Below, one piece after another: positions 33,549 to 49,418 of a DNA stretch of 64,000 nt. Within the stretch, counting starts at the first letter, position 1. The number at the start of each line of letters is the position of its first letter. The DNA is from Chloroflexota bacterium (lineage in GTDB: Bacteria; Chloroflexota; Dehalococcoidia; SM23-28-2; RBG-16-64-32): NCBI GenBank assembly GCA_029262695.1, contig JAJCYV010000004.1:2807-66806 (forward strand), read 5' to 3'. Made by a program: the position numbers and the translations under genes. The notes beneath the pieces were generated by a model, which saw nothing but the letters and a program-made list of their open reading frames with translations, ran no database searches and was not told the DNA's origin.

Positions 33549-34520
33549 ATGGACGAATCGTCCCGGGCCCCGCAAGAGCGGGTGCTTATCTGGGACCGCA
33601 TAGACGCCAACAAGTGGCGCACGGTCCTCCTCATCCTGGGCTTCGTTATCTTCACCGCGCTCTTCTTCGCCGCCGTCGGCACGGTGATCTCCGTGTACGC
33701 GGGCGTTAGCCCGAGCGTCGATCCCACGCTCACCATTCAGATCGCTGTGGCGACGGCGCTCGTCGCCACGGCCATCGGCGTGATGATGTACTACGCCGCC
33801 ACAGCGACCGTGCTCGCAATCTCTGGCGCGCACGAGGTCACTGTCGCCGAAGAGCCGGAGCTGTACCGCGTCGTCGAGAACCTGAGCATCGGCTCCGGCC
33901 TGCCGATGCCCAAGGTCTGGGTGGTCGAGGACAGCGCGCCGAACGCCTTCGCCACCGGCCGTGACCCGGAGCGAGCACACGTCGCCGCCACGCGTGGTCT
34001 CATCGACAAGCTCGAGAAGCGCGAGCTGGAGGCCGTTATGGCGCACGAGATGTCGCACATCGGCAACTACGACATCCGGATCATGACGACGGTGGCGGTC
34101 GTCGTCGGCCTGATGGCGCTCTTCACGGACATGATGCTGCGCTTCACCTGGTACGGCGCCGGTGCGAGGCGGGGCAACCGCGGCAAGGGAGGCGGCGGGA
34201 TCGCTCTGCTCATCCTCGCCGTCGCGATCGTCTTCATCGTCCTCTCGCCGTTTATCGCCTCCGCGCTGCGTTTCGCCGTGTCCCGCCAACGCGAGTACCT
34301 GGCCGACGCCTCTGGGGCGCTCCTCTGCCGCAACCCGGACGCGCTGGCCGATGCGCTCGAAAAGATATCGGCCGATCCGGAGCCGCTGGAGGCCGCCAAC
34401 AAGGCCACTGCGCATCTCTACATCGAAAACCCGCTCAAAGAGCACAAGAGCTTCCTCAATAGCCTCTTCGCCACTCACCCGCCCGTGGACGAGCGCATCA
34501 AGCTCCTCCGCGCGATGTGA
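33549..34520 (+). CDS. M48-family zinc metallopeptidase (HtpX-like), partner of LemA
   Basis: It has a HEMSH motif (AVMAHEMSHIGNYD) and a C-terminal FATHPPVDERIKLL. It immediately follows lemA, a commonly conserved pair. Confidence 0.8.
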   Translation: MDESSRAPQERVLIWDRIDANKWRTVLLILGFVIFTALFFAAVGTVISVYAGVSPSVDPTLTIQIAVATALVATAIGVMMYYAATATVLAISGAHEVTVAEEPELYRVVENLSIGSGLPMPKVWVVEDSAPNAFATGRDPERAHVAATRGLIDKLEKRELEAVMAHEMSHIGNYDIRIMTTVAVVVGLMALFTDMMLRFTWYGAGARRGNRGKGGGGIALLILAVAIVFIVLSPFIASALRFAVSRQREYLADASGALLCRNPDALADALEKISADPEPLEAANKATAHLYIENPLKEHKSFLNSLFATHPPVDERIKLLRAM

Positions 34521-34990
34521 CGACCGTGCCGCCGCTACTGCGACCCGCCCGCGCGGAGGACATCGACGCCATCACTCGGCTCATCGCCTCCGAGACGTTG
34601 CCGGCGGTCGAGGTCGCGGAGTGGCTGGGGGGCTTCTGGGTGCTGGAAGAGGCCGGGACGCTCGTCGCTTGCGCGGGAATCGAGCGCTACGGCGAGGCGG
34701 CCGTCCTGCGCTCGGTCGTAGTGGCCGCGTCGCTGCGCGGGAGTGGCGAAGGTGCGCGAATGACGGAGCGTGCGCTGGCCTTCGCGCGGGACGACGGCGC
34801 CCGGCGCTGTTATCTGTTCACGATGGCCGCGCCGGAGTTCTTCGCGCGGTTCGGGTTCGAACGCTGTCGGCTGGACGACTTCGAGCCCGACGCGAGGGAG
34901 TCCTGGCAGTGGCGGGGCGTCTCAGGGAGCGAGGGTCTCGCCGGGCAGGTGATCCCGATGCGGGCCGACCTCCAGGCCCGCTCGTCCTGA
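34517..34990 (+). CDS. GNAT-family N-acetyltransferase
   Basis: The acetyl-CoA-binding region is VVVAASLRGSGEGARMTERALAFARDDGARRCYLFT. Its stop codon lies inside a palindromic repeat copy. Confidence 0.65.
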   Translation: MTTVPPLLRPARAEDIDAITRLIASETLPAVEVAEWLGGFWVLEEAGTLVACAGIERYGEAAVLRSVVVAASLRGSGEGARMTERALAFARDDGARRCYLFTMAAPEFFARFGFERCRLDDFEPDARESWQWRGVSGSEGLAGQVIPMRADLQARSS

Positions 34991-36139: not shown

Positions 36140-37168
36140 ATGAGACCACCCGCCGCTCTCTCCCTGCTCCTCGTTCTACCGCTGGCCCTCGCCGCCTGCA
36201 GTAGTGGCGGCGAGCCGGCGCCCACCGGGCCGACCGCCACGCCGTTCGTTATCCTCGGCTCGCCGGACGGAAGCTCACCATCGCCTGGCGCGGGCACGGC
36301 GACCGACGATCCGACCATGACGCCCCAGCCGACCGGCGAGCTGGTCTCGCTCGACTGGCTGGCCGGGAGCGCCGCGTTCCCGGCTGTGCCGTCGCCGTTC
36401 GCCGCGCCGGTTGCCGACCCCGACCTGCTCGCCGCTGTCGAAGGAGCGCTGGACGGGCTCGACGGCGGGTTCAGCGTGATCGTCCACAACCTCGCCGACG
36501 GGCGCTACGCGGCGATCAACCCGAACACCGCGTACTATGCTGCGAGCCTGTTTAAGGCCCCCGTCTTGATCGAGACGTACCGGCAGCACGACCTCGGCAT
36601 CATCGACTTCTCGACCGAACTCACGATCGACGAGGAGGTCGCGCAGTACGATCTCGGAACGTTTGAGTATCTGGGGCTCGCGGAAGGCGATATCGTGCTC
36701 CTCGGCGAGGCTGTCGAAGCGATGGTCGTCGTCAGCGATACGGCGCTCGCGAACCTCGTGCTCGGTGAGGTCGGCTCCGGCAACGTCGACGCGACGCTCG
36801 GCGAGATCGGCGCCACGACGATGTCCGTCAGCACCCGCGACCTGCCGACGACCGCCGCCGACATGTACGCTGTCCTCTCCGCGATTGCGACGGGCGACGG
36901 CGTCTCGGAGGGTTCGCGGCAGGAGATGCTGAGCCTGATGGCGCAGGAGTGGTTCTACAGCGGCGTCGTCGCCGGCATTCCGGCCGGTACGCCCTTCGCC
37001 CACAAGACCGGCAGCTTCACAGACGCCACGCACGACGTCGCCGTCGTCGAAGGCCCGGAGGGGCCGTACATCATCGTCGTCCTCAGCGACGGCTCGTACC
37101 AGTGGGAGCCGATCGCCGGCGTCTCCGATGCCGTCTGGCGGCACTTCGCCGGCGAGCCCGAAGACTAG
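36140..37168 (+). CDS. Secreted serine-hydrolase lipoprotein, class A beta-lactamase-like fold
   Basis: It has a lipoprotein signal (LLLVLPLALAAC), a Pro/Thr-rich linker, an SxxK motif (YYAASLFKAPVL) and a later HKTG (KTG box). Confidence 0.55.
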   Translation: MRPPAALSLLLVLPLALAACSSGGEPAPTGPTATPFVILGSPDGSSPSPGAGTATDDPTMTPQPTGELVSLDWLAGSAAFPAVPSPFAAPVADPDLLAAVEGALDGLDGGFSVIVHNLADGRYAAINPNTAYYAASLFKAPVLIETYRQHDLGIIDFSTELTIDEEVAQYDLGTFEYLGLAEGDIVLLGEAVEAMVVVSDTALANLVLGEVGSGNVDATLGEIGATTMSVSTRDLPTTAADMYAVLSAIATGDGVSEGSRQEMLSLMAQEWFYSGVVAGIPAGTPFAHKTGSFTDATHDVAVVEGPEGPYIIVVLSDGSYQWEPIAGVSDAVWRHFAGEPED

Positions 37169-38039: not shown

Positions 38040-38258
38040 CTAGTCCGGCTTGCGCGTCGAGAAGTAGAAGAGGACGCCACCGAGCCAGCTGTTGCCGTCC
38101 TCTCCGATCGGAACGGGGACGGTCGACTCCAGCTGCCAACCCTCTTCAGCGTAAGCCTGTAGCAATACGCGCTGCCGTTCGATGTACTCGTTCCAGTCAC
38201 CCTCGCTAAGAGGATTGCCACCAAACCAGACCATCCCGACGTCGTACACGAGTGCCAT
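38040..38258 (-). CDS. Small hypothetical protein (72 aa)
   Basis: The ORF has a plausible RBS (GAAAGG). No family was recognised. Confidence 0.3.
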   Translation of the reverse strand: MALVYDVGMVWFGGNPLSEGDWNEYIERQRVLLQAYAEEGWQLESTVPVPIGEDGNSWLGGVLFYFSTRKPD

Positions 38259-38344
38259 TGCCCCTGCCTTTCGTCCGCCCCGGCGATTGTCGTTCTCCGT
38301 GGGTCGTCGCCCATTCTAGCCCAGGGCTGCGATCACCTGCTCGC

Positions 38345-38374
38345 TTGACACCACCGCTCGCTCGCCCGTAACAT
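38345..38374 (+). promoter_or_regulatory. Putative sigma70-type promoter of the arg operon leader (TTGACA - 18 nt - TAACAT)
   Basis: It has a perfect -35 hexamer and is followed by a short leader ORF and a terminator before argC. Confidence 0.5.
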
Positions 38375-38383
38375 CGCTCCATC

Positions 38384-38458
38384 ATGTTCCTCGTGCCTGA
38401 GAGCCGCGCCCGACGACCGCGACCCGTTGGTGGGGCGGTCTCGCACGTCTTTCGATAG
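38384..38458 (+). CDS. Candidate 24-aa leader peptide MFLVPESRARRPRPVGGAVSHVFR; Arg cluster encoded by rare CGA codons
   Basis: The ATG is 10 nt after the -10. Codons 8-13 are CGC-GCC-CGA-CGA-CCG-CGA, and the final sense codon is CGA. The ORF overlaps the sequence GGTGGGGC, which can pair with the terminator 5' arm. Confidence 0.35.
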   Translation: MFLVPESRARRPRPVGGAVSHVFR

Positions 38459-38493
38459 CGAGAACAGACGCTAGCTGCAAAGCAGTTCGTTGA

Positions 38494-38530
38494 GCCCCAC
38501 CGCTGATCAGTGGTGGGGGTTTTTTATTTC
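38494..38530 (+). terminator. Strong intrinsic terminator/attenuator hairpin (GCCCCACCGCTGA/TCAGTGGTGGGG) followed by TTTTTTATTT, 14 nt upstream of the argC ATG
   Basis: It is a roughly 12-bp GC-rich stem with one G-U wobble, plus a U-tract, on the + strand only. The upstream neighbour is on the opposite strand, so this is not a gene-end terminator. Confidence 0.7.
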
Positions 38531-38543
38531 TGGAGAAGCAAAG

Positions 38544-39584
38544 ATGGTCAAAATCGGAATCATAAACGTGACGGGGTACGCCGGCGCCGAACTGGCGCGC
38601 CTGCTGTACAACCATCCCGAGGCGGAGGTCGCCTCCGTCACCGGCCGCAGCGAGGCCGGCAAGAAGCTCGCCGAAGTCTTCCCGCACCTCGCGTCTTACG
38701 ATCTCACGATCGAGCCGGAACTCGCGTCGGGCGTCGACTTCGCTTTCTCGGCGCTGCCGCACGCCGCCAGCGCCGAGGCCTGCGCGCCGCTCGTCCGCGC
38801 CGGCGTGCCGGTCGTCGATATCAGCGCCGACTTCCGGCTCCACGACGCCGCCGTCTACAGCGAGTGGTACGGCGGCGAGCACCCGGCGCAGGACCTGCTC
38901 CCGGACGCCGCCTACGGCCTGCCGGAGCTCCACCGCGAGGCGATCAGCGGCGCGAAGCTCGTCGCCAACCCGGGCTGCTACCCCGAGAGCGCGATCCTGG
39001 CGCTGGCGCCAGCCGTCAAAGCCGGCATCATCGGCCCGGAGATCATCATCGACTCCAAGTCGGGTGTCTCCGGCGCCGGCCGCGGCCTGAAGCAAAATCT
39101 ACAGTTAGGCGAGGCCGGAGAGAGCGTCTCGGCGTACGGCCTCGATGGTCACCGCCACTGGCCGGAGATCCACCAGGAGATAACGGCGATCTGGCCGGAG
39201 GGGACGGCGCCGAAGATCACGTTCACGCCTCACCTGATCCCGATGACGCGCGGCATTCTGACCACGGCCTACGCGCCGATCGTTCCCGGCGCTCTGCCGG
39301 AGGGGGACGCCGGCAAGTCCGCCGCGCGCGACATCTACGACCAGTTCTACAACGACGAGCCGTTCGTACGCGTTGCCGGTTCGCCGCCGGCGACGAAGCA
39401 GACGCGCGGCAGCAACATGTGCCTCGTCTTCCCGACGGTCGACGTCCGAACCGGCCGTCTCGTCGTCGTGAGCGTCCTCGACAACCTGGTCAAGGGTGCG
39501 GCGGGACAGGCCGTACAGAACATGAACCTGATGCTGGGCATGCCGGAGACGACAGCGCTCGACATGCCCGCGGTATACCCGTAA
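38544..39584 (+). CDS. argC: N-acetyl-gamma-glutamyl-phosphate reductase
   Basis: The protein begins MVKIGIINVTGYAGAELARLL... and contains the catalytic Cys in GCYPE. It follows a GGAGAAG RBS. Confidence 0.9.
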   Translation: MVKIGIINVTGYAGAELARLLYNHPEAEVASVTGRSEAGKKLAEVFPHLASYDLTIEPELASGVDFAFSALPHAASAEACAPLVRAGVPVVDISADFRLHDAAVYSEWYGGEHPAQDLLPDAAYGLPELHREAISGAKLVANPGCYPESAILALAPAVKAGIIGPEIIIDSKSGVSGAGRGLKQNLQLGEAGESVSAYGLDGHRHWPEIHQEITAIWPEGTAPKITFTPHLIPMTRGILTTAYAPIVPGALPEGDAGKSAARDIYDQFYNDEPFVRVAGSPPATKQTRGSNMCLVFPTVDVRTGRLVVVSVLDNLVKGAAGQAVQNMNLMLGMPETTALDMPAVYP

Positions 39585-39607
39585 TGGGCCCCGAGATGGA
39601 GGAAGAA

Positions 39608-40843
39608 ATGGTTACAGCCAACGCACAAGCAACGAAGATCGAGATCATCGGAGACGGCGGCGTCACGTCGCCGCAGGGCTTCACGGCCGGCGGCGTGCAC
39701 GTCGGCGTCCGCAGCGACTGGACGAAGGTGGACGTCGGCCTCGTCTATTCGGAGGCGCCGTGCACCACGGCCGCCGTCTACACGAGCAACACGCTGAAGG
39801 CGGCGCCGCTGCTCATCACGCGGGAACACCTGAACAACGGCGGCGCGCAGGCGATAGTAGCCAACTCCGGCTGCGCCAACGCCGCTACCGGTGCGAAGGG
39901 CGCCGAAAACGCCGTCACGATGGCGAAGCTCGCCGCCGACAAGCTCGGGGTCGAGCCGGCCGACGTTGTCGTCGCCTCTACAGGCGTCATCGGCACGCAA
40001 CTGCCGATGGACCGCATCGCAAAGGGCGTCGCGGAGACGAAGCTGACCGGCGATGGCGGCGGCGACTTCGCGGTGTCGATCATGACGACCGATACCGTCA
40101 AGAAGCAGATCGCCGTCAAGTTCGGCGGCTGGACACTCGGTGCGGCCTGCAAGGGCGTCGGTATGATCCACCCGAACATGGCGACGATGCTCTGCTTCAT
40201 GTCGACCGACGCGCCCGTCGAGGGGGCGTTCCTTTCGTCGGCTCTGAAGGAGGCGGTGGACGTCTCGTTCAACATGGTCGATATCGACAACGACACGAGC
40301 ACGAACGACATGGCGATCGTCCTCGCCAACGGCCTCGCGGGAGGCGATCCGATCACCGGTGGGCACCCCGACGCGGAGGCGTTCCAGAAGGCCCTGACGC
40401 TCGTCTGCACGAGCATGGCGCGGATGATGGTGAGCGACGCCGAGGGTGGCACGAAGCTGATCGAGACGAAGGTGGAAGGCGCCGCCAGCCCCGCCGACGC
40501 CCGCAAGGCGGCCCGCGAAGTCGTGACGTCGATCGGCGTCAAGACCGCGATCTACGGCGAGGACGCCAACTGGGGCCGCATCCTGGCGGCGATCGGTAAC
40601 AGCGGCGCCGCCTGGTCCGAACCGGCGACGGCGCTCTACCTGGCCCACCCGGACGGCGGCGAGGTCTGCCTCTACCGCGAAGGCGCGCCCCAGGACTACG
40701 ACGTGACTGTGGCCAAGGCCTGCCTCGCGCCGGCCGAGGTGCTGGTGCGGATCGAGTTGGGTCAGGGCGCGGGCGAGGCCACTGCCTGGGGCTCCGACCT
40801 CACCGAGGAGTTCGTGCGACTCAACAGCGAGTACACGACGTAG
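39608..40843 (+). CDS. argJ: Bifunctional glutamate N-acetyltransferase / amino-acid acetyltransferase ArgJ
   Basis: This ATG follows GGAGGAAGAA; the alternative start at 39584 overlaps the argC stop. It has the conserved ATML autoproteolysis site (NMATMLCF). Confidence 0.85.
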   Translation: MVTANAQATKIEIIGDGGVTSPQGFTAGGVHVGVRSDWTKVDVGLVYSEAPCTTAAVYTSNTLKAAPLLITREHLNNGGAQAIVANSGCANAATGAKGAENAVTMAKLAADKLGVEPADVVVASTGVIGTQLPMDRIAKGVAETKLTGDGGGDFAVSIMTTDTVKKQIAVKFGGWTLGAACKGVGMIHPNMATMLCFMSTDAPVEGAFLSSALKEAVDVSFNMVDIDNDTSTNDMAIVLANGLAGGDPITGGHPDAEAFQKALTLVCTSMARMMVSDAEGGTKLIETKVEGAASPADARKAAREVVTSIGVKTAIYGEDANWGRILAAIGNSGAAWSEPATALYLAHPDGGEVCLYREGAPQDYDVTVAKACLAPAEVLVRIELGQGAGEATAWGSDLTEEFVRLNSEYTT

Positions 40844-40943
40844 CTGGTAGCCGGGGGGGCGTAGCTGCATGCCTTCAGGCTTGCCGGGGCGGGGTGGCAC
40901 GAAGAACGAACAAAGGACTAGAGGTTAGGAGACTAGGAGAAGG

Positions 40944-41723
40944 ATGACCGACATCATCGTCGCCAAGATCGGCGGCTCGACGCTGGGGGGCCACGACACG
41001 ACGCTCGACGACGTGGCGGAGCTGGCACGCCGTGGCGCGCGGCCTGTGATCGTCCACGGCGGCGGAGCGCTGATCAGCGACTGGCTGAAGCGCCTCGGCG
41101 TGCCGACGACGTTCGAGAAGGGGCTGCGCGTCACCGACGCCGCCTCGCTGGATGTGGTCGTCGGCGTGCTCTGCGGACTCGTGAACAAGGGGCTCGTCGC
41201 GGCGCTCCAGGGCCGCGGTGCCTCCGCGCACGGACTATCCGGCGCGGACGGCGGCCTCCTGCAGGCGGCCGTCCGCGATCCGGCGCTGGGCTTCGTCGGC
41301 GAGATAACAGCGGTCGATCCGACGGCCGTCCTGCGGATCATCGAGGGCGGCGCCGTGCCGGTGATCGCGCCCGTCGGCATCGAATACAGGGACGGCCGAG
41401 CGACCGGCCAGCTCCTCAACATCAACGCCGACACAGCGGCCGGTGCGATCGCCGCGGCCATCGGCGCCGGCGCGCTGGCGTTCCTCACCGACGTCCCCGG
41501 CGTCAAGTCCGGCGGGCGTGTCCTGGAGGCGCTCTCGGCGGCGGAGGCGCACGAGCTGACGGGCGCGGGCGTCATCGAAGGCGGTATGATTCCAAAGGTC
41601 GAAGCCTGCCTGCAGGTCGCGGCCGCCGGCAGCCGCGCGGTCATCGTCGATGGCCGCGAAGAGCACGCGCTCATCAGCGTCGCTGAAGGCGCGCAGGCCG
41701 GGACAAGCGTAGGCCAGGAGTGA
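40944..41723 (+). CDS. argB: Acetylglutamate kinase
   Basis: It begins with IVAKIGGSTLG, the amino-acid-kinase family signature, and follows an AGGAGAAGG RBS. Confidence 0.9.
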   Translation: MTDIIVAKIGGSTLGGHDTTLDDVAELARRGARPVIVHGGGALISDWLKRLGVPTTFEKGLRVTDAASLDVVVGVLCGLVNKGLVAALQGRGASAHGLSGADGGLLQAAVRDPALGFVGEITAVDPTAVLRIIEGGAVPVIAPVGIEYRDGRATGQLLNINADTAAGAIAAAIGAGALAFLTDVPGVKSGGRVLEALSAAEAHELTGAGVIEGGMIPKVEACLQVAAAGSRAVIVDGREEHALISVAEGAQAGTSVGQE

Positions 41724-41725
41724 AC

Positions 41726-42925
41726 ATGCAGACGGAAAACTGGATCGAGATCGAGCACGACTACTACCTGCAGACGGCGAAACGGCTGCCGGTGGTGCTC
41801 GAGCGCGGCGAAGGCACCATCGTCTGGGACAGCGACGGCAAGCAGTACCTCGACTTCGTCGGCGGCATCGCCGTCACCAGCCTCGGCCACGCCAACCCCG
41901 TGATCGTCGAGGCTCTGACGCGGCAGGCGCAGAAGCTCATCACAGTGTCGAACCTCTACTACACCGTGCCTCAGCTCAAGCTGGCGCAGCTGCTGTGCGA
42001 GAGCAGCGGCATGGACAAGGCGTTCTTCTGCAACAGCGGCGCCGAGGCCGTCGAGGGGCTGATAAAGCTCGCCCGCAAGTGGGGCAAGGAGAAGCGCGAC
42101 GGCGCCTACGAGATCATCGTCGCCGAAAACGCCTTTCACGGCCGCACCCTGGCGACGGTCGCCGCCTCCGCCAACGAGCGCTACCGCGCGCCGTTCACGC
42201 CGCTGCCGGAGGGCTTCGTCCGCGTCCCCTATAACGACGCCGAGGCGATCAAGGCCGCGACGACCGGCAAGACCGTCGCCGTGCTCCTGGAGCCGTTGCA
42301 GGGTGAGGGCGGCGTCAACGTCCCGGACGACGGCTACCTGACCGCCGTTCGTAGCTGGTGCGACGAGGCCGGCATCCTGCTCCTCCTCGACGAGGTGCAG
42401 ACCGGCGCCGGCCGCACGGGCAAGCTGTTCTGCTTCCAGCACTACGGTATCGAGCCCGACGCGCTGGCGGTGGCCAAGGCGCTCGCCGGCGGCGTGCCGA
42501 TCGGCGCCTTCATGACGAAGGACAGCGCTGCGCTCCTGGGCCCCGGCGAACACGGCACGACGTTCGGCGGCAACGCCCTGGCCTGCGAGGTCGGCTACTC
42601 CGTGCTCAAGCACATGATCGACAACGACTTGCCGGCGCAGGTGACGAAGCGCGGCCAGCACCTGGAGCGCCGCCTCAGCTCGCTCGCCGACCGCCAGCCG
42701 ATGGTCACGGAGGTGCGCGGGAAGGGCCTGATCTGGGCGATCGAACTGGACCGCCCGGCCGCGGAGGCCGCCGTCGGGCGTTGCCTGGAGGAAGGGCTCC
42801 TCATCAACGGCGTCAAGCCGACGGCGCTGCGCTTCGTGCCGCCGTTCACCGTGAGCGAAGAAGAACTGGACCGCGCCGTCAACATCGTCGAGCGTGTGCT
42901 GGGCGAGATATCCGAGGAGAAGTAA
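41726..42925 (+). CDS. argD: Acetylornithine aminotransferase (class III PLP aminotransferase)
   Basis: This ATG follows AGGAG; the alternative is a GTG at 41720. It has the PLP-lysine region (LLLLDEVQTGAGRTG...). Confidence 0.85.
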   Translation: MQTENWIEIEHDYYLQTAKRLPVVLERGEGTIVWDSDGKQYLDFVGGIAVTSLGHANPVIVEALTRQAQKLITVSNLYYTVPQLKLAQLLCESSGMDKAFFCNSGAEAVEGLIKLARKWGKEKRDGAYEIIVAENAFHGRTLATVAASANERYRAPFTPLPEGFVRVPYNDAEAIKAATTGKTVAVLLEPLQGEGGVNVPDDGYLTAVRSWCDEAGILLLLDEVQTGAGRTGKLFCFQHYGIEPDALAVAKALAGGVPIGAFMTKDSAALLGPGEHGTTFGGNALACEVGYSVLKHMIDNDLPAQVTKRGQHLERRLSSLADRQPMVTEVRGKGLIWAIELDRPAAEAAVGRCLEEGLLINGVKPTALRFVPPFTVSEEELDRAVNIVERVLGEISEEK

Positions 42926-44124
42926 TGGCTGAGAAGATCGTACTGGCGTACTCCGGCGGGCTCGACACGGCCGTTGCCATACGCTGGCTCAAGGAAGAAA
43001 AGGGATACGACGTCGTCGCGCTGACCGTCGACGTGGGCATGGACCGCCAGCGCGAGGAGTTGCAATCTCGGGCGATGGCCGCCGGCGCTGCGAGCTTCGA
43101 ATGGAGCGACGTGCAGGACGACTTCGTGCGGCACTTCGTCTTCCCGGCGGTGATGGCCGGCGCAAAGTACCAGGGCGTCTACCCGCTGGCCACCGCTCTC
43201 TCGCGGCCGCTGATCGCGCGTGAGATGGTCGAAGTCGCCCGCCGCGAGGGCGCAACCGCCGTCGCGCACGGCTGCACGGCCAAGGGCAACGACCAGGTGC
43301 GCCTCGACGTCTCCGTGCAGGCGCTGGCACCCGACCTGACGATCGTCGCGCCGCTCCGCGAGTGGGACATGGTCCGCGAGACTCAGATCGACTACGCCCA
43401 CGAGCACAACATCCCGATCAACGTCACCAAGAAGAGCCCTTACAGCATCGACGAAAACCTCTACGGCCGCAGCATAGAGGCCGGCTCCCTCGAAGACCCC
43501 TGGACGGAGCCGCCGGACGACGTCTGGCTCTGGACGAAGTCGCCCGCGGACGCCCCGGACGAAGCGGCTTACGTGGAGATCGGCTTCGAGCAGGGCGTCC
43601 CGACGACTCTCGGTGGCGAGGCGACGGATCCCGTCGGGCTGATCAACGCGCTCAGCGCGATCGCCGGTGAGCACGGCGTCGGGCGCATCGATACAGTCGA
43701 GGACCGCCTCGTCGGCATCAAGTCACGCGAGGTCTACGAAGCGCCCGCCGGCGTCACGCTGCTCGTCGCCCACGAGGCGATCGAGTCGCTTGCTCTGTCG
43801 AAGGAGCAACGGCGCTTCAAGGCGCAGGTCGCACAGGAGTACGCGGACCTCGTCTACAACGGGCTCTGGTACGGGACGCACCACCAGGACCTGCAAGCCT
43901 ACATCCGGAGCACACAGCGTCACGTCAGCGGCACGGCACGCCTCAAGCTACACAAGGGCGCCGTCACCGTCGTTGGGCGCAGGTCGCCGCGGAGCCTGTA
44001 CGACTTCGAACTGGCCACGTACGACAAGGCCGACCAGTTCGACCGCACAGCCGCCGTCGGCTTCATTGACATCTGGGGCCTGCCCGTAAAGGTGCAGTCG
44101 CAGGCGCAGCGCTCCGACGAATAG
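42925..44124 (+). CDS. argG: Argininosuccinate synthase
   Basis: The ATG overlaps the argD stop (TAATG). It begins IVLAYSGGLDTAV, the PP-loop motif. Confidence 0.9.
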   Translation: MAEKIVLAYSGGLDTAVAIRWLKEEKGYDVVALTVDVGMDRQREELQSRAMAAGAASFEWSDVQDDFVRHFVFPAVMAGAKYQGVYPLATALSRPLIAREMVEVARREGATAVAHGCTAKGNDQVRLDVSVQALAPDLTIVAPLREWDMVRETQIDYAHEHNIPINVTKKSPYSIDENLYGRSIEAGSLEDPWTEPPDDVWLWTKSPADAPDEAAYVEIGFEQGVPTTLGGEATDPVGLINALSAIAGEHGVGRIDTVEDRLVGIKSREVYEAPAGVTLLVAHEAIESLALSKEQRRFKAQVAQEYADLVYNGLWYGTHHQDLQAYIRSTQRHVSGTARLKLHKGAVTVVGRRSPRSLYDFELATYDKADQFDRTAAVGFIDIWGLPVKVQSQAQRSDE

Positions 44125-44170: not shown

Positions 44171-44449
44171 ATGGCCAAAGACAAGCGAGTAGAGGTGCTA
44201 TTCGAGTCGCAGCAGTACAAGCGGCTGGAGGAGGTCGCCCAGCGCGAGGGCAAGGCCGTCGGCGCATTAATCCGCGAGGCGGTAGCGAAGTACGTCGTGG
44301 CGCCGTCGGAGGAGGAGCGGGAGCGCGCGTGGGAGCACTTTTTCTCGCTGGTGGGGAAGGGCGGCCCGTCTGGTTCGCCGGAGGAGATCAAGGAAGAGAT
44401 CTTGAAGGGCTACGACGAGGACGACGCGCGGCTGTATGAAGCTGATTGA
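44171..44449 (+). CDS. Type II antitoxin (VapB-like, RHH/CopG-type)
   Basis: It is 92 aa (KRVEVLFESQQYKRLEEVAQREGKAVGALIREAV), lies immediately upstream of a PIN-domain gene and overlaps it by 14 nt. Confidence 0.6.
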   Translation: MAKDKRVEVLFESQQYKRLEEVAQREGKAVGALIREAVAKYVVAPSEEERERAWEHFFSLVGKGGPSGSPEEIKEEILKGYDEDDARLYEAD

Positions 44450-44849
44450 CACCAACATTTTCGTCTACTCGCTCGGGTCAGAACATCCCTACCGCGAGCC
44501 GTCGCTGGCAACTCTCAAGCGGATCCGCGAGGGCGAAATCGACGCCAACATCAGCACGGAGATACTGCAGGAGTTGCTTCACGTCTATCGCCGGCGGAAT
44601 CAGTTGCAGCTTGGGGTCGAGCTCTTCGACGACCTGGTTGGTCAGTTTCCGCAGCCGGTTCCAATCGTGGCGGCAACGGCGATCATAGCGAGGGACGTTC
44701 TGGAGCGGTATCCTTCTCTCCAGGCCCGCGATGCCTTCCACGCGGCGGTCGTCTTCGAGCACAACCTCGAAGGCATTATCTCCGCCGATCGAGCCTTCGA
44801 TCGTATCGAAGGCCTGAGGCGTTTCGATCCGAAGGAGCTTGTAGCATGA
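44436..44849 (+). CDS. vapC: PIN-domain toxin VapC
   Basis: The N-terminus is MKLIDTNIFVY, with conserved acidic residues. Confidence 0.7.
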   Translation: MKLIDTNIFVYSLGSEHPYREPSLATLKRIREGEIDANISTEILQELLHVYRRRNQLQLGVELFDDLVGQFPQPVPIVAATAIIARDVLERYPSLQARDAFHAAVVFEHNLEGIISADRAFDRIEGLRRFDPKELVA

Positions 44850-45310
44850 GCGGCGAAGTCCTGCACATCCACATCGCGCCCACCGCCGAAGCGACCCCCA
44901 TGCGTGTGAACTCGGTCCGCGCCGAACCCGGCCGCGGCCTCGAAGGCGATCGTTACTACGCGCGCGCCGGCACGTACTCCGAGAAGGGCGGCCCCGGCCG
45001 CGAGGTCACCCTGGTCGCCAGCGAAGCGATCGAGGCGCTGGAGGCTGAGTTCGGCGTCAAGCTGGCGCCGGGCCAGTCGCGACGTAACATCACGACGCTC
45101 GGCATCGACCTGAACGACTTCGTGGACAGGGAGTTCCGCGTGGGCGGGGTCGTGCTGCGCGGCGTGAGGCTGTGCGATCCGTGCGACCACCTCGAGGGCC
45201 TCGTCGGGCAGGCGAACACGACGTCCGGTCTCGAGAACCGGGGTGGTCTCCGCTGCGACATCGTCTCCGGCGGCACCATTCGCGTCGGCGACGAAATCAC
45301 GCCGGTCTGA
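44846..45310 (+). CDS. MOSC-domain protein
   Basis: It has the GLEGDRY motif and the conserved Cys (CDPCDHLE). Confidence 0.7.
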   Translation: MSGEVLHIHIAPTAEATPMRVNSVRAEPGRGLEGDRYYARAGTYSEKGGPGREVTLVASEAIEALEAEFGVKLAPGQSRRNITTLGIDLNDFVDREFRVGGVVLRGVRLCDPCDHLEGLVGQANTTSGLENRGGLRCDIVSGGTIRVGDEITPV

Positions 45311-48020: not shown

Positions 48021-49418
48021 ATGAATGGCACGATGGAAGAGGGCAAGGGAGCGCAGAGCCCCACCGCCAAGGGCCTCGATCGCCGCGCGCTGGACTACAG
48101 CGCCTCGGTCGGTTACGACCGGCGCCTGTACGCGCACGACATCGCCGGGTCGGTTGCCCACGCCCGCATGCTCGGCGCGCAGGGCATCATCCCGGCTGAC
48201 GACGCGACGCAGATCGTGCGCGGCCTGGAGGAGATCCGTGACGAGATCGAGGCCGGGAAGTTCGAGTGGCGCGAAGACCTCGAGGACGTGCACCTGAACA
48301 TCGAAGTCGCCCTGCGCGAAAGAATCGGTGACGCCGGCGCTCGTCTGCACACGGCCCGCTCCCGCAACGACCAGGTCGCGACCGACGTCCGCCTGTTCGT
48401 GATGGATTCGTGCGACCGCGCCGTAGACGGCGTGCGCGATGTGCAGCGGGCGCTCATCGGCATGGCCGAGGCCAACGCCGGCGCCATCATGCCGGGCTAC
48501 ACGCACCTGCAGCGCGCCCAGCCCGTGCTCTTCGCCCACCACCTGCTCGCCTACTTCGAGATGCTGGACCGCGACGCCATTCGCTTCGCCGCCGCCCGGG
48601 ACAGCGCCGACGAACTGCCTCTCGGCTCGGGCGCCCTCGCCGGCGTGCCATACCCGGTCGACCGCGAGGCCGTCGCCCGCGAACTCGGCTTCAGCCGCGT
48701 CTCGCGCAACAGCATCGACGCGGTCAGCGACCGCGACTTCGCCGTCGACTTCCACGCCGCTTCCGCCACGACGATGATGCACCTCTCGCGTCTCAGCGAG
48801 GAGATCATCGTCTGGTCGAGCGACGAGTTCGGCTTCCTGCGCCTGCCGGACGACTTCGCGACAGGCTCCAGCATCATGCCGCAGAAGCGCAACCCGGACA
48901 TCGCCGAGCTGGCGCGCGGCCGCACCGGCCGCGTCTACGGCAACCTCGTGGCGCTGCTCACGATGCTCAAGGGCCTGCCGCTCGCCTATAACCGCGATCT
49001 ACAAGAAGACAAGCAGCCGCTCTTCGACACCGTCGACGTGCTCCTGCCGACGCTCGAAGTGATGGCGGCGATGCTGCCGCGCCTCTCACTGGACGCCGGG
49101 CGCGCCGCCAACGCTGCCGCCGGCGGCTACCTGCTAGCCACCGACGTCGCCGACTACCTCGTGCGCAAGGGCGTGGCCTTCCGCGACGCGCACCAGGCCG
49201 TCGCCGATCTGGTGCGCCACGCCGAGGATCAGAGCAAGCCGCTCGCCGAGCTGACGCTTGACGAGTACCGCCGCTTCTCGCCGCAGTTCCAGGAGGACGT
49301 GCTGAGCCTCGACGCCCGCGCGTCCATCGACGCGCGCGACGTGCCCGGCGGCACGGCCTCCGGCCGCGTGGCGGACGCCCTGAACGAAGCGAAGAAGCGC
49401 CTCGAGGGCCCGGCATGA
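48021..49418 (+). CDS. argH: Argininosuccinate lyase
   Basis: It has the fumarate-lyase signature (GSSIMPQKRNPD) and overlaps the downstream rpe start (ATGA). Confidence 0.9.
   Translation: MNGTMEEGKGAQSPTAKGLDRRALDYSASVGYDRRLYAHDIAGSVAHARMLGAQGIIPADDATQIVRGLEEIRDEIEAGKFEWREDLEDVHLNIEVALRERIGDAGARLHTARSRNDQVATDVRLFVMDSCDRAVDGVRDVQRALIGMAEANAGAIMPGYTHLQRAQPVLFAHHLLAYFEMLDRDAIRFAAARDSADELPLGSGALAGVPYPVDREAVARELGFSRVSRNSIDAVSDRDFAVDFHAASATTMMHLSRLSEEIIVWSSDEFGFLRLPDDFATGSSIMPQKRNPDIAELARGRTGRVYGNLVALLTMLKGLPLAYNRDLQEDKQPLFDTVDVLLPTLEVMAAMLPRLSLDAGRAANAAAGGYLLATDVADYLVRKGVAFRDAHQAVADLVRHAEDQSKPLAELTLDEYRRFSPQFQEDVLSLDARASIDARDVPGGTASGRVADALNEAKKRLEGPA

Follow-up and report, generated by a model that had tools for sequence, protein, structure and literature searches.

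Layout of the locus

We analysed a 64,000-nucleotide stretch of DNA from a Chloroflexota bacterium of the class Dehalococcoidia (contig JAJCYV010000004.1, positions 2,807 to 66,806; hereafter the window), in which the arginine biosynthesis genes argC, argJ, argB, argD and argG follow one another on the forward strand. All five score above the curated NCBIfam cut-offs. Directly upstream of argC, within fewer than 200 nucleotides, lie a promoter, a 24-codon open reading frame (ORF) dominated by CGA arginine codons and a strong intrinsic terminator (Table 1). The comparative and folding evidence presented here indicates that this leader is probably a ribosome-mediated (leader-peptide) transcription attenuator, a device that would monitor how far tRNA-Arg is charged and set the read-through into argCJBDG accordingly.

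The only sigma-70-like promoter match between positions 37000 and 47000 is the TTGACA-18-TAACAT element at 38345. Because 9 nt separate the end of its −10 box from the leader ATG, transcription is expected to start about 3 nt before this start codon. The leader ORF therefore appears to be effectively leaderless, with a 5′ untranslated region (UTR) of about 3 nt and without a Shine-Dalgarno sequence. At the other end of the leader, the gap between the T-rich tail of the terminator and the argC ATG measures 14 nt and contains the argC Shine-Dalgarno sequence. It is too short for another promoter, and expression of the operon hence requires read-through of the terminator.

Several of these elements had been recognized in an earlier note, drawn up from the letters of this DNA. 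The TTGACA-18-TAACAT promoter upstream of argC, the 24-codon ORF with mostly CGA codons for arginine (four of its five Arg codons), the rarity of CGA in host genes (10 of 237 Arg codons, or 4.2%, in 12 confident window genes) and the strong terminator ending 14 nt before the argC start (its tail ends at 38529) are all borne out. Only the position of the argC ATG had to be moved, from 38545 to 38544.

The terminator stem comprises 10 pairs, 7 of them G-C, with a folding energy of about −20 kcal/mol. It is the only strong canonical intrinsic terminator in the 64 kb: no comparable structure was found when the remaining 54 kb were scanned, and terminator-like matches there occur at or below the frequency expected from shuffled sequence. 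Given this scarcity, normal gene ends in the host organism probably use a different mode of termination.

Conservation and distribution of the leader

A scan of a genome collection with ArgC returned 80 loci, all from metagenome-assembled genomes (MAGs) of Chloroflexota/Dehalococcoidia. At 31 of these loci, with ArgC identities from 92% down to about 58–70%, the same build is found upstream of argC: TTGAC(A), a −10 box, an ORF of 23–33 codons with an Arg cluster, a G-run, a terminator of the form GCCCCACC...GGTGGGG and a T-rich tail. Most loci at about 60% ArgC identity are devoid of the leader, and argC directly follows a promoter or the nth gene in them. At one related locus without the leader (L027:2700-3010), argC itself begins in the same promoter-proximal CATCATG context (TATACT, 9 nt, ATG). 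Translation of argC thus seems to start leaderless at this locus, which points to the gain of the leader by insertion, or its loss by deletion, at a leaderless argC promoter.

Metagenomes were scanned with a degenerate leader pattern, which retrieved 120 stretches, about 100 of them chance matches in GC-rich coding DNA. True leaders, recognized by the terminator 3′ arm together with the small ORF, account for 21 stretches, one of which ends at a contig end. In 19 of the remaining 20 copies, the downstream ORF matches ArgC, and that of L112 is also read as argC. In total, 51 distinct leader sequences (31 from genomes and 20 from metagenome contigs) encode 44 distinct peptides. The small ORF, its Arg run, the CGA bias and the terminator, the very features that the earlier note had proposed to trace in orthologous regions, are present in every member of the clade.

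To the closest subgroup of leaders we fitted a covariance model (R1). In the window, the model recovers a single leader copy; its other match is the palindromic terminator read on the opposite strand. Across 638 kb of loci it recovers exactly 51 leaders, one per locus and always before argC. No second copy was found before argH or the other genes of the window.

The start of the leader is conserved as well. TTGAC is retained in the 32 copies from the window and the genomes, and the start codon lies 38–40 nt past the beginning of the −35 box; in the metagenome copies promoter spacing was used to place the start codon, so that the same arrangement there is not independent. The ATCATG context at the leader start is nearly invariant, with alignment positions A1, T2, T5 and G6 showing little or no variation.

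Arginine codons of the leader ORF

In the window, the five Arg codons of the leader ORF are, in order, CGC, CGA, CGA, CGA and CGA. Across the 51 distinct sequences, the ORF measures 21–33 codons and starts with ATG in 47 cases and with GTG in 4. Although codons 2–7 vary freely, every copy contains an in-frame Arg cluster (of the types RARRPRP, PRRARP and QPRPRR), and in 49 of the 51 leaders a window of seven codons holds 3–5 Arg residues. Arginine is the only residue enriched in every subgroup. The in-frame assignment is based on the translated peptides of the 32 window and genome copies; when the start is placed by distance from the −35 box alone, the CGN-rich cluster reads as Arg in that frame in all 32.

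Within the cluster, CGA makes up 58% of the Arg codons (69 of 118), compared with 8.7% in the argC genes of the same loci. In the model-based alignment, the first and third cluster positions (Arg1 and Arg3) are CGA in 43 of 50 and 47 of 50 leaders, respectively. The middle codon (Arg2) keeps CG and varies in its wobble base (A 20, G 13, T 6, C 6), which is how a codon, as opposed to a mere RNA motif, should behave. At Arg1 and Arg3, the third-position A is 86–94% conserved and yet unpaired in the consensus of P1, the leader hairpin described below; P1 pairing thus does not explain the preference for CGA. A further Arg codon is the last sense codon in 41 of the 51 leaders, with CGA-TAG invariant within the closest subgroup. 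In an assay based on the Salmonella his leader, CGA takes significantly longer to translate than CGU or CGC, and the slowest codon pairs include Pro-Pro and Pro-Gly (PMC4046918).

Mutually exclusive RNA structures

The leader together with its terminator folds more stably than expected (z = −3.8). In the window, the minimum-energy fold consists of a long hairpin (38385-38466), a small hairpin (38467-38491) and the terminator. Three mutually exclusive helices of like strength, each of about −20 kcal/mol, can be drawn from four regions of the leader. The first, P1 (regions 1:2), spans 38406-38448 at −20.1 kcal/mol and has a core in which CGA.GACCGC..CCC pairs with GGG GCGGUC UCG. The second is the antiterminator (2:3), in which GUUGGUGGGGC (38426-38436) pairs with GCCCCACCGCU (38494-38504) at −20.6 kcal/mol in a helix without a bulge. 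The third is the terminator (3:4). In stalled-state folds, the TCTCGC/GCGAGA hairpin across the stop codon forms only when P1 is open, and it sits inside the antiterminator junction; it is thus predicted to belong to the read-through conformation.

These structures settle several points that the earlier note had raised. An intermediate pairing, one of the two options it had offered, does exist, namely P1, in which the Arg/Pro codons at 38406-38426 pair with 38431-38448, a segment that overlaps the antiterminator strand. The sequence GGTGGGGC does lie in the leader ORF; its position is 38429-38436 and not 38427-38434, and instead of being identical to the terminator 3′ arm it agrees with it at 7 of 8 positions (GGTGGGGG stands there). 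The final C of GGTGGGGC pairs with G38494. The hairpin spanning the stop codon is likewise real, and begins at 38439 rather than 38438.

P1-type hairpins, formed by C-rich Arg/Pro/Ala codons with the following G-run, appear in the pre-terminator folds of nearly all members, each folded singly, although the member sequences differ. The antiterminator duplex is stronger than that of dinucleotide shuffles in 27 of 32 members (mean z = −3.0); its covariation cannot be assessed, as region 3 is invariant. In the covariance-model alignment, which was fitted to the structure of the model, 20 of 32 pairs change on both sides. P1 contributes both-side changes at 12 of its 15 pairs, and 7 of the 8 pairs of the spacer hairpin P2 covary. 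Among the covarying pairs is 57:116, with GC in 23 and CG in 17 sequences. The same alignment leaves 90.8% of pair cells paired, compared with 41–50% for slid partners. Its covariation score of 0.238 compares with 0.10 for shuffles (0 of 500 reach 0.238) and 0.01–0.03 for slid partners. The closest subgroup taken alone shows weak covariation because P1 is nearly invariant there.

The terminator itself occurs in all leader members, and GCCCCACC of its 5′ arm is invariant among them. In the model-based alignment, 7 of 9 pairs of its stem never vary. An invariant stem is unusual for terminators. This frozen state fits a region 3 that has to serve two partners, with a region 2 that must also match region 1.

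The QPRPRR subgroup (L019-L026; for example L019:693-845) has another layout, with a peptide of the form MTAL..QPRPRRSFGGGFPVPAGSR. Here, region 2 is GGCGGTGGG, which pairs with a shifted part of the same terminator arm, and region 1 is GCCCAGCCGC, a mimic of the terminator 5′ arm with a one-base bulge. As read from these complementarities, the predicted switch logic is the same in this subgroup and is retained through different sequences.

Ribosome stalling and the predicted fold switch

We modelled a stalled ribosome in silico by masking a footprint that reached from 15 nt 5′ of the first A-site base to 12 nt 3′ of it, and folded the masked transcripts up to the terminator loop, at a stage when the 3′ arm has not yet been made. 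Without a ribosome, the terminator 5′ arm of the window leader remains unpaired. With the A site at 38405, 38411 or 38414, by contrast, 8–9 of its 10 bases pair with region 2. In the resulting fold, the antiterminator closes a three-way junction from which the hairpins at 38439-38463 and 38467-38491 branch off. A ribosome at any of these three sites covers region 1, and its footprint ends at about 38417-38426, so that region 2 is freed for the terminator 5′ arm.

The same behaviour is predicted throughout the family. The antiterminator forms in 11 of the 51 members without a ribosome, whereas all 51 form it when the ribosome is placed on one of cluster Arg codons 1 to 3, and 47 do so for codon 1 and codon 2 alike. 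With the last sense codon as the stall site, the antiterminator is predicted in 27 of the 51. When every codon is scanned as the A site, the inducing window ends at the last cluster Arg codon, or at the adjacent Pro codon, in nearly all members; Arg accounts for 33% of the codons that induce the antiterminator and for 12% of the others.

Table 1. Features of the argC leader and of the operon behind it (positions in the window)
Feature	Positions	Strand	Details
Promoter	38345..38374	+	−35 box TTGACA 38345-38350, 18-nt spacer, −10 box TAACAT 38369-38374
Putative transcription start A38381 and 3-nt 5′ UTR	38381..38383	+	Placed by −10 spacing
Leader ORF	38384..38458	+	24 codons and TAG; ATG 38384, TAG 38456-38458; peptide MFLVPESRARRPRPVGGAVSHVFR
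Regulatory Arg cluster	38405..38422	+	CGC GCC CGA CGA CCG CGA (R-A-R-R-P-R)
Region 1	38406..38426	+	P1 5′ arm, made of Arg/Pro codons
Region 2	38426..38448	+	P1 3′ arm 38431-38448, overlapping the antiterminator strand GTTGGTGGGGC 38426-38436
Hairpin TCTCGC/GCGAGA	38439..38463	+	Across the stop codon; from stalled-state folds
C-terminal Arg codon	38453..38455	+	CGA, directly 5′ of the stop codon
Spacer hairpin P2	38467..38491	+	7 of 8 pairs covary
Region 3, terminator 5′ arm	38494..38504	+	GCCCCACCGCT; pairs with region 2 or region 4
Terminator loop	38505..38508	+	GATC
Region 4, terminator 3′ arm	38509..38519	+	AGTGGTGGGGG
T-rich tail	38520..38529	+	TTTTTTATTT
argC	38532..39584	+	Shine-Dalgarno GGAG 38532-35, ATG 38544; TIGR01850, 388.7 bits
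Rest of operon	39584..44124	+	argJ (~39584/39608-40843), argB 40944-41723, argD 41720-42925, argG 42925-44124

Proposed mechanism

At the level of sequence, every feature that defines classical leader-peptide attenuators appears to be present, and the comparative and folding data support the ribosome-mediated Arg-codon attenuator that the earlier note had put forward. In this model, transcription would begin about 3 nt before the start codon of the 24-codon leader ORF. With plentiful arginine, the ribosome would pass the slow CGA codons and reach or leave the stop codon; P1 would re-form behind it, region 3 would stay free to form the terminator, and transcription would stop 14 nt before argC. 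With charged tRNA-Arg in short supply, the ribosome would stall with an early Arg codon of the cluster in its A site. It would then bury region 1 and leave region 2 just beyond its leading edge, where region 2 could capture region 3 as it emerges, while the hairpins at 38439-38463 and 38467-38491 would close the junction. With region 3 captured, no terminator would form and argCJBDG would be transcribed. The rare, slow CGA codons, and probably also the interleaved Pro codons, would sharpen the sensitivity of this response. The last Arg codon may represent a second, later sensing site that is timed to the arrival of the polymerase at the terminator.

Several observations weigh against such an attenuator. 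All sequences come from uncultured MAGs or metagenomes, and both the transcription start and leaderless translation (3-nt UTR, no Shine-Dalgarno sequence) are inferred. The covariation counts derive, as noted, from an alignment fitted to the modelled structure, and the QPRPRR subgroup aligns poorly to the covariance model. RNAalifold applied to a plain MAFFT alignment of the 32 leaders (up to the stop codon) yields an empty consensus because the subgroups are not structurally aligned; per-sequence folds, subgroup alignment and the covariance-model alignment were used in its place. The conservation of CGA could reflect some constraint at the RNA level, and the U-tract is interrupted in many members (for example, GCGATTTCATTT).

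Other objections concern the switch. Region 2 is partly masked when the stall falls on the last Arg codon of the cluster (38420); the earlier note had expected such masking of the antiterminator arm from CGA stalls in general, but it applies to this codon only and not to stalls at earlier cluster codons. Under equilibrium folding, a ribosome on the stop codon still gives the antiterminator in 21 of the 51 members. The off state is thus not clean at equilibrium and would depend on kinetics, either through P1 forming first or through ribosome release. Some 20 nt separate region 2 from the stop codon further on, and a terminating ribosome therefore does not cover region 2, unlike in trpL; termination must then rely on P1 forming first, either in the wake of the ribosome or once it has been released. 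Folded at full length, the RNA favours the terminator over a forced antiterminator by 5–7 kcal/mol. In classical attenuators, the terminator fold is likewise favoured at full length and the choice is a kinetic one.

Known regulators and alternative explanations

We also searched for known types of regulation. Against Rfam 15, the whole window gives no match at gathering score, and positions 38200-38650 give only chance matches to the terminator hairpin at E values up to 10. The known Rfam leader families were set aside accordingly. A T-box riboswitch was rejected for want of an Rfam match, for the length of the leader (only about 145 nt) and for an antiterminator without a bulge. For the arginine repressor ArgR, the ARG box TNTGAATWWWWATTCANW, a general consensus from which a lineage-specific motif may differ, has no match with up to 3 mismatches in the 64 kb, in line with the earlier remark that no ARG-box-like palindrome is visible; at the 31 genome-derived leader loci, the best match within 300 nt upstream of argC has at least 5 mismatches. 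A tblastn search with E. coli ArgR and B. subtilis AhrC found no homologue in the window or the fetched loci. ArgR could be encoded elsewhere in these genomes, a further point against the attenuator reading.

The alternative that fares best, although we judge it improbable, is a structured leader RNA that binds a metabolite or protein and thereby picks terminator or antiterminator, the small ORF being incidental and untranslated. P1, P2 and the terminator are conserved, with covariation in P1 and P2, and the invariant G/C-rich segments could serve as a binding site; moreover, no Shine-Dalgarno sequence precedes the ORF, and a 24-codon open frame is not unusual in GC-rich DNA. Yet an incidental frame would hardly be expected to keep its start codon at a fixed distance from the promoter, with exchange of ATG for GTG, or to hold an Arg cluster in frame in every copy, with variation at Arg2 confined to the wobble base. 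The conserved, unpaired third-position A of CGA is equally at odds with a purely structural role. Within the RNA, no internal loop or junction is conserved in the way that ligand pockets typically are, sequence is free to vary over the N-terminal half, and Rfam holds no match even at E up to 10.

It is hardly probable that the device is a general sensor of translation capacity or slow codons, responding to ribosome availability, EF-P status or (p)ppGpp-linked slowing and not specifically to arginine. CGA codons and Pro/Gly pairs are slow even in rich medium (PMC4046918), and according to the fold scan a stall anywhere in about the first 12 codons gives the antiterminator. Three observations nevertheless speak for arginine specificity: the element accompanies the arginine operon alone, no residue other than Arg is enriched throughout the subgroups, and the fraction of Arg is 0.33 at the inducing stall positions as opposed to 0.12 at others.

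Very unlikely is a sequence-specific arrest peptide that stalls when arginine or a related metabolite occupies the exit tunnel, as in fungal AAP, SpeFL or TnaC; in that case, high ligand levels would increase read-through, or the signal would be one different from tRNA charging. Pro and Gly-Gly/Ser-Gly recur besides Arg (R-R-P-R-P-x-x-G), the last residue is Arg in 41 of the 51 peptides and motifs with Pro are slow by nature (PMC4046918). An arrest peptide, however, depends on a fixed sequence, and the leaders encode 44 different ones with free N-termini, in which order and spacing differ among subgroups (RARRPRP, PRRARP, QPRPRRSFGGGFPVP, RERRRARP, VLRRRARAG). The Pro and Gly codons are instead explained by pairing, with CCN opposite the G-run and GGU GGG as the antiterminator strand, and it would be physiologically senseless for excess arginine to induce its own biosynthesis. 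Least credible of all is an independent small gene or small RNA made of promoter, ORF and terminator, with argC expressed from elsewhere or mainly controlled by ArgR: termination would yield a separate RNA of about 145 nt, and attenuator RNAs such as rnTrpL are reported to act in trans (10.1101/606483), but the 14-nt gap to the argC ATG leaves no room for a promoter, the place directly before argC is kept in all copies, neither an ARG box (window and leader loci) nor an ArgR gene (window and fetched loci) was found, and competing 1:2 and 2:3 structures would be purposeless in a plain small gene.

Neighbouring genes

About 4 kb past argG lies argH (about 48040-49418), without a copy of the leader. 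Right after argG, positions 44171-45310 hold an RHH antitoxin-like gene and a PIN-domain (VapC-like) gene, which overlap by 14 nt, followed by a MOSC-domain gene. The interval between argCJBDG and argH also includes a deacetylase-like ORF, a HAD-type ORF and an oppositely oriented aldo/keto-reductase-like ORF. On the other side of the leader, a 72-codon ORF (38040-38258, minus strand; MALVYDVGMVWFGGNPLSEGDWNEYIERQ...) lies between nth and the leader promoter, divergent from the promoter, and has no Pfam or NCBIfam match. In several relatives, the end of the nth gene lies directly 5′ of the leader promoter in place of this ORF. Further upstream (34517-34990, plus strand), a small GNAT acetyltransferase gene matches the ArsN2 and amino-acid N-acetyltransferase models below their cut-offs only; it could encode a short N-acetylglutamate synthase of the arginine pathway, outside the attenuated operon. 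The 64-kb window contains no tRNA genes.

Discussion

Arginine biosynthesis is a textbook case of control by the ArgR repressor, and the amino acids with described attenuators of the classical leader-peptide type are Trp, His, Leu, Thr, Phe, Ile/Val and Cys. The leader described here resembles the enterobacterial attenuators trpL, hisL, leuL, thrL, pheL and ilvL in its promoter-near short ORF with codons for the end product, in its four regions with 1:2, 2:3 and 3:4 alternatives and the regulatory codons inside region 1, in an intrinsic terminator just before the first structural gene, and in rare or slow codons in the leader. The rare CUA codons of the leu leader are a precedent for rare codons as sensors. 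The present leader differs from these systems in its amino acid, in the lack of any sequence similarity, in its putatively leaderless ORF and in its occurrence in Chloroflexota. Compared with trpL, the terminating ribosome leaves region 2 uncovered, and the off state would rely on P1 re-forming.

The trp, leu, ilvB and cys attenuators of Actinobacteria, which were predicted by comparative genomics, share high GC content, short leader ORFs, regulatory codons and terminator/antiterminator alternatives with the argC leader (PMC1262725). The same survey reports no RNA regulatory structure at actinobacterial arginine operons and knows RNA-level control of arginine genes only as T-boxes elsewhere (PMC1262725). 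A survey from 2010 places leader peptides in Proteobacteria, Actinobacteria and, newly, Firmicutes only (PMC2965389). For an arginine leader-peptide attenuator of an arg operon, we found no report in the full-text literature or in Rfam 15.

Other known systems share single aspects of the predicted mechanism. The polycysteine short ORFs of mycobacteria are leaderless first cistrons, as is predicted for the argC leader ORF, in which stalling at the cognate codons remodels the downstream RNA, but they act on translation and sense Cys, whereas the argC leader would sense Arg through an intrinsic terminator/antiterminator switch (10.1101/834739). Pausing at consecutive or rare Arg codons under low arginine alters the fate of the downstream mRNA in Salmonella orf34, which precedes speF (PMC6386406), and in S. 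aureus rbfL, whose Arg codons are likewise rare (PMC13009471). The targets of orf34 and rbfL are polyamine and biofilm genes, as opposed to arginine biosynthesis, and they act through Rho termination, RNase G decay or a blocked ribosome-binding site instead of an intrinsic terminator/antiterminator switch. Pausing in rbfL represses its target, whereas the stall predicted here favours read-through. Control by ArgR and ARG boxes or by Arg T-box leaders serves the same purpose, feedback on arginine biosynthetic genes; the mechanism proposed here is borne by the ribosome and not by protein-DNA or tRNA-RNA contact. In fungi, the AAP, encoded by an upstream ORF of arg-2/CPA1, also controls an arginine-pathway gene in response to arginine. 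It is a conserved peptide through which high arginine causes ribosome arrest and represses translation. The peptides described here, by contrast, show no such conservation of sequence; the predicted signal is a shortage of charged tRNA-Arg, and the predicted output is a change in transcription termination.

The argC leader is probably a new family of attenuators, in which both the amino-acid specificity and the phylum are new and the start is putatively leaderless; the mechanism itself is not new. A more far-reaching view, which we hold only tentatively and think somewhat doubtful, is that this clade of Dehalococcoidia has swapped ArgR or T-box control of arginine synthesis for a leaderless attenuator with two sensing sites, the CGA cluster and the C-terminal Arg codon. 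In that event, both arginine and Chloroflexota would have their first classical attenuator, and a family of leaderless 'ribulon'-type sensors would be implied for this uncultured lineage. More extreme still is the idea that the Arg/Pro/Gly peptide itself might take part, through arginine-dependent arrest or by binding its own RNA.

A conserved attenuator for arginine would add an amino acid to the classical list and extend the mechanism to Chloroflexota. It would couple leaderless initiation to an intrinsic terminator switch and would be a clear natural case of a rare, slow codon (CGA) selected for sensing. At about 145 nt, the RNA is compact and well suited to studying in vitro how ribosome and RNA polymerase are coupled on a leaderless mRNA, and the covariance model R1 is a ready marker for annotating arginine regulation in uncultured Dehalococcoidia.

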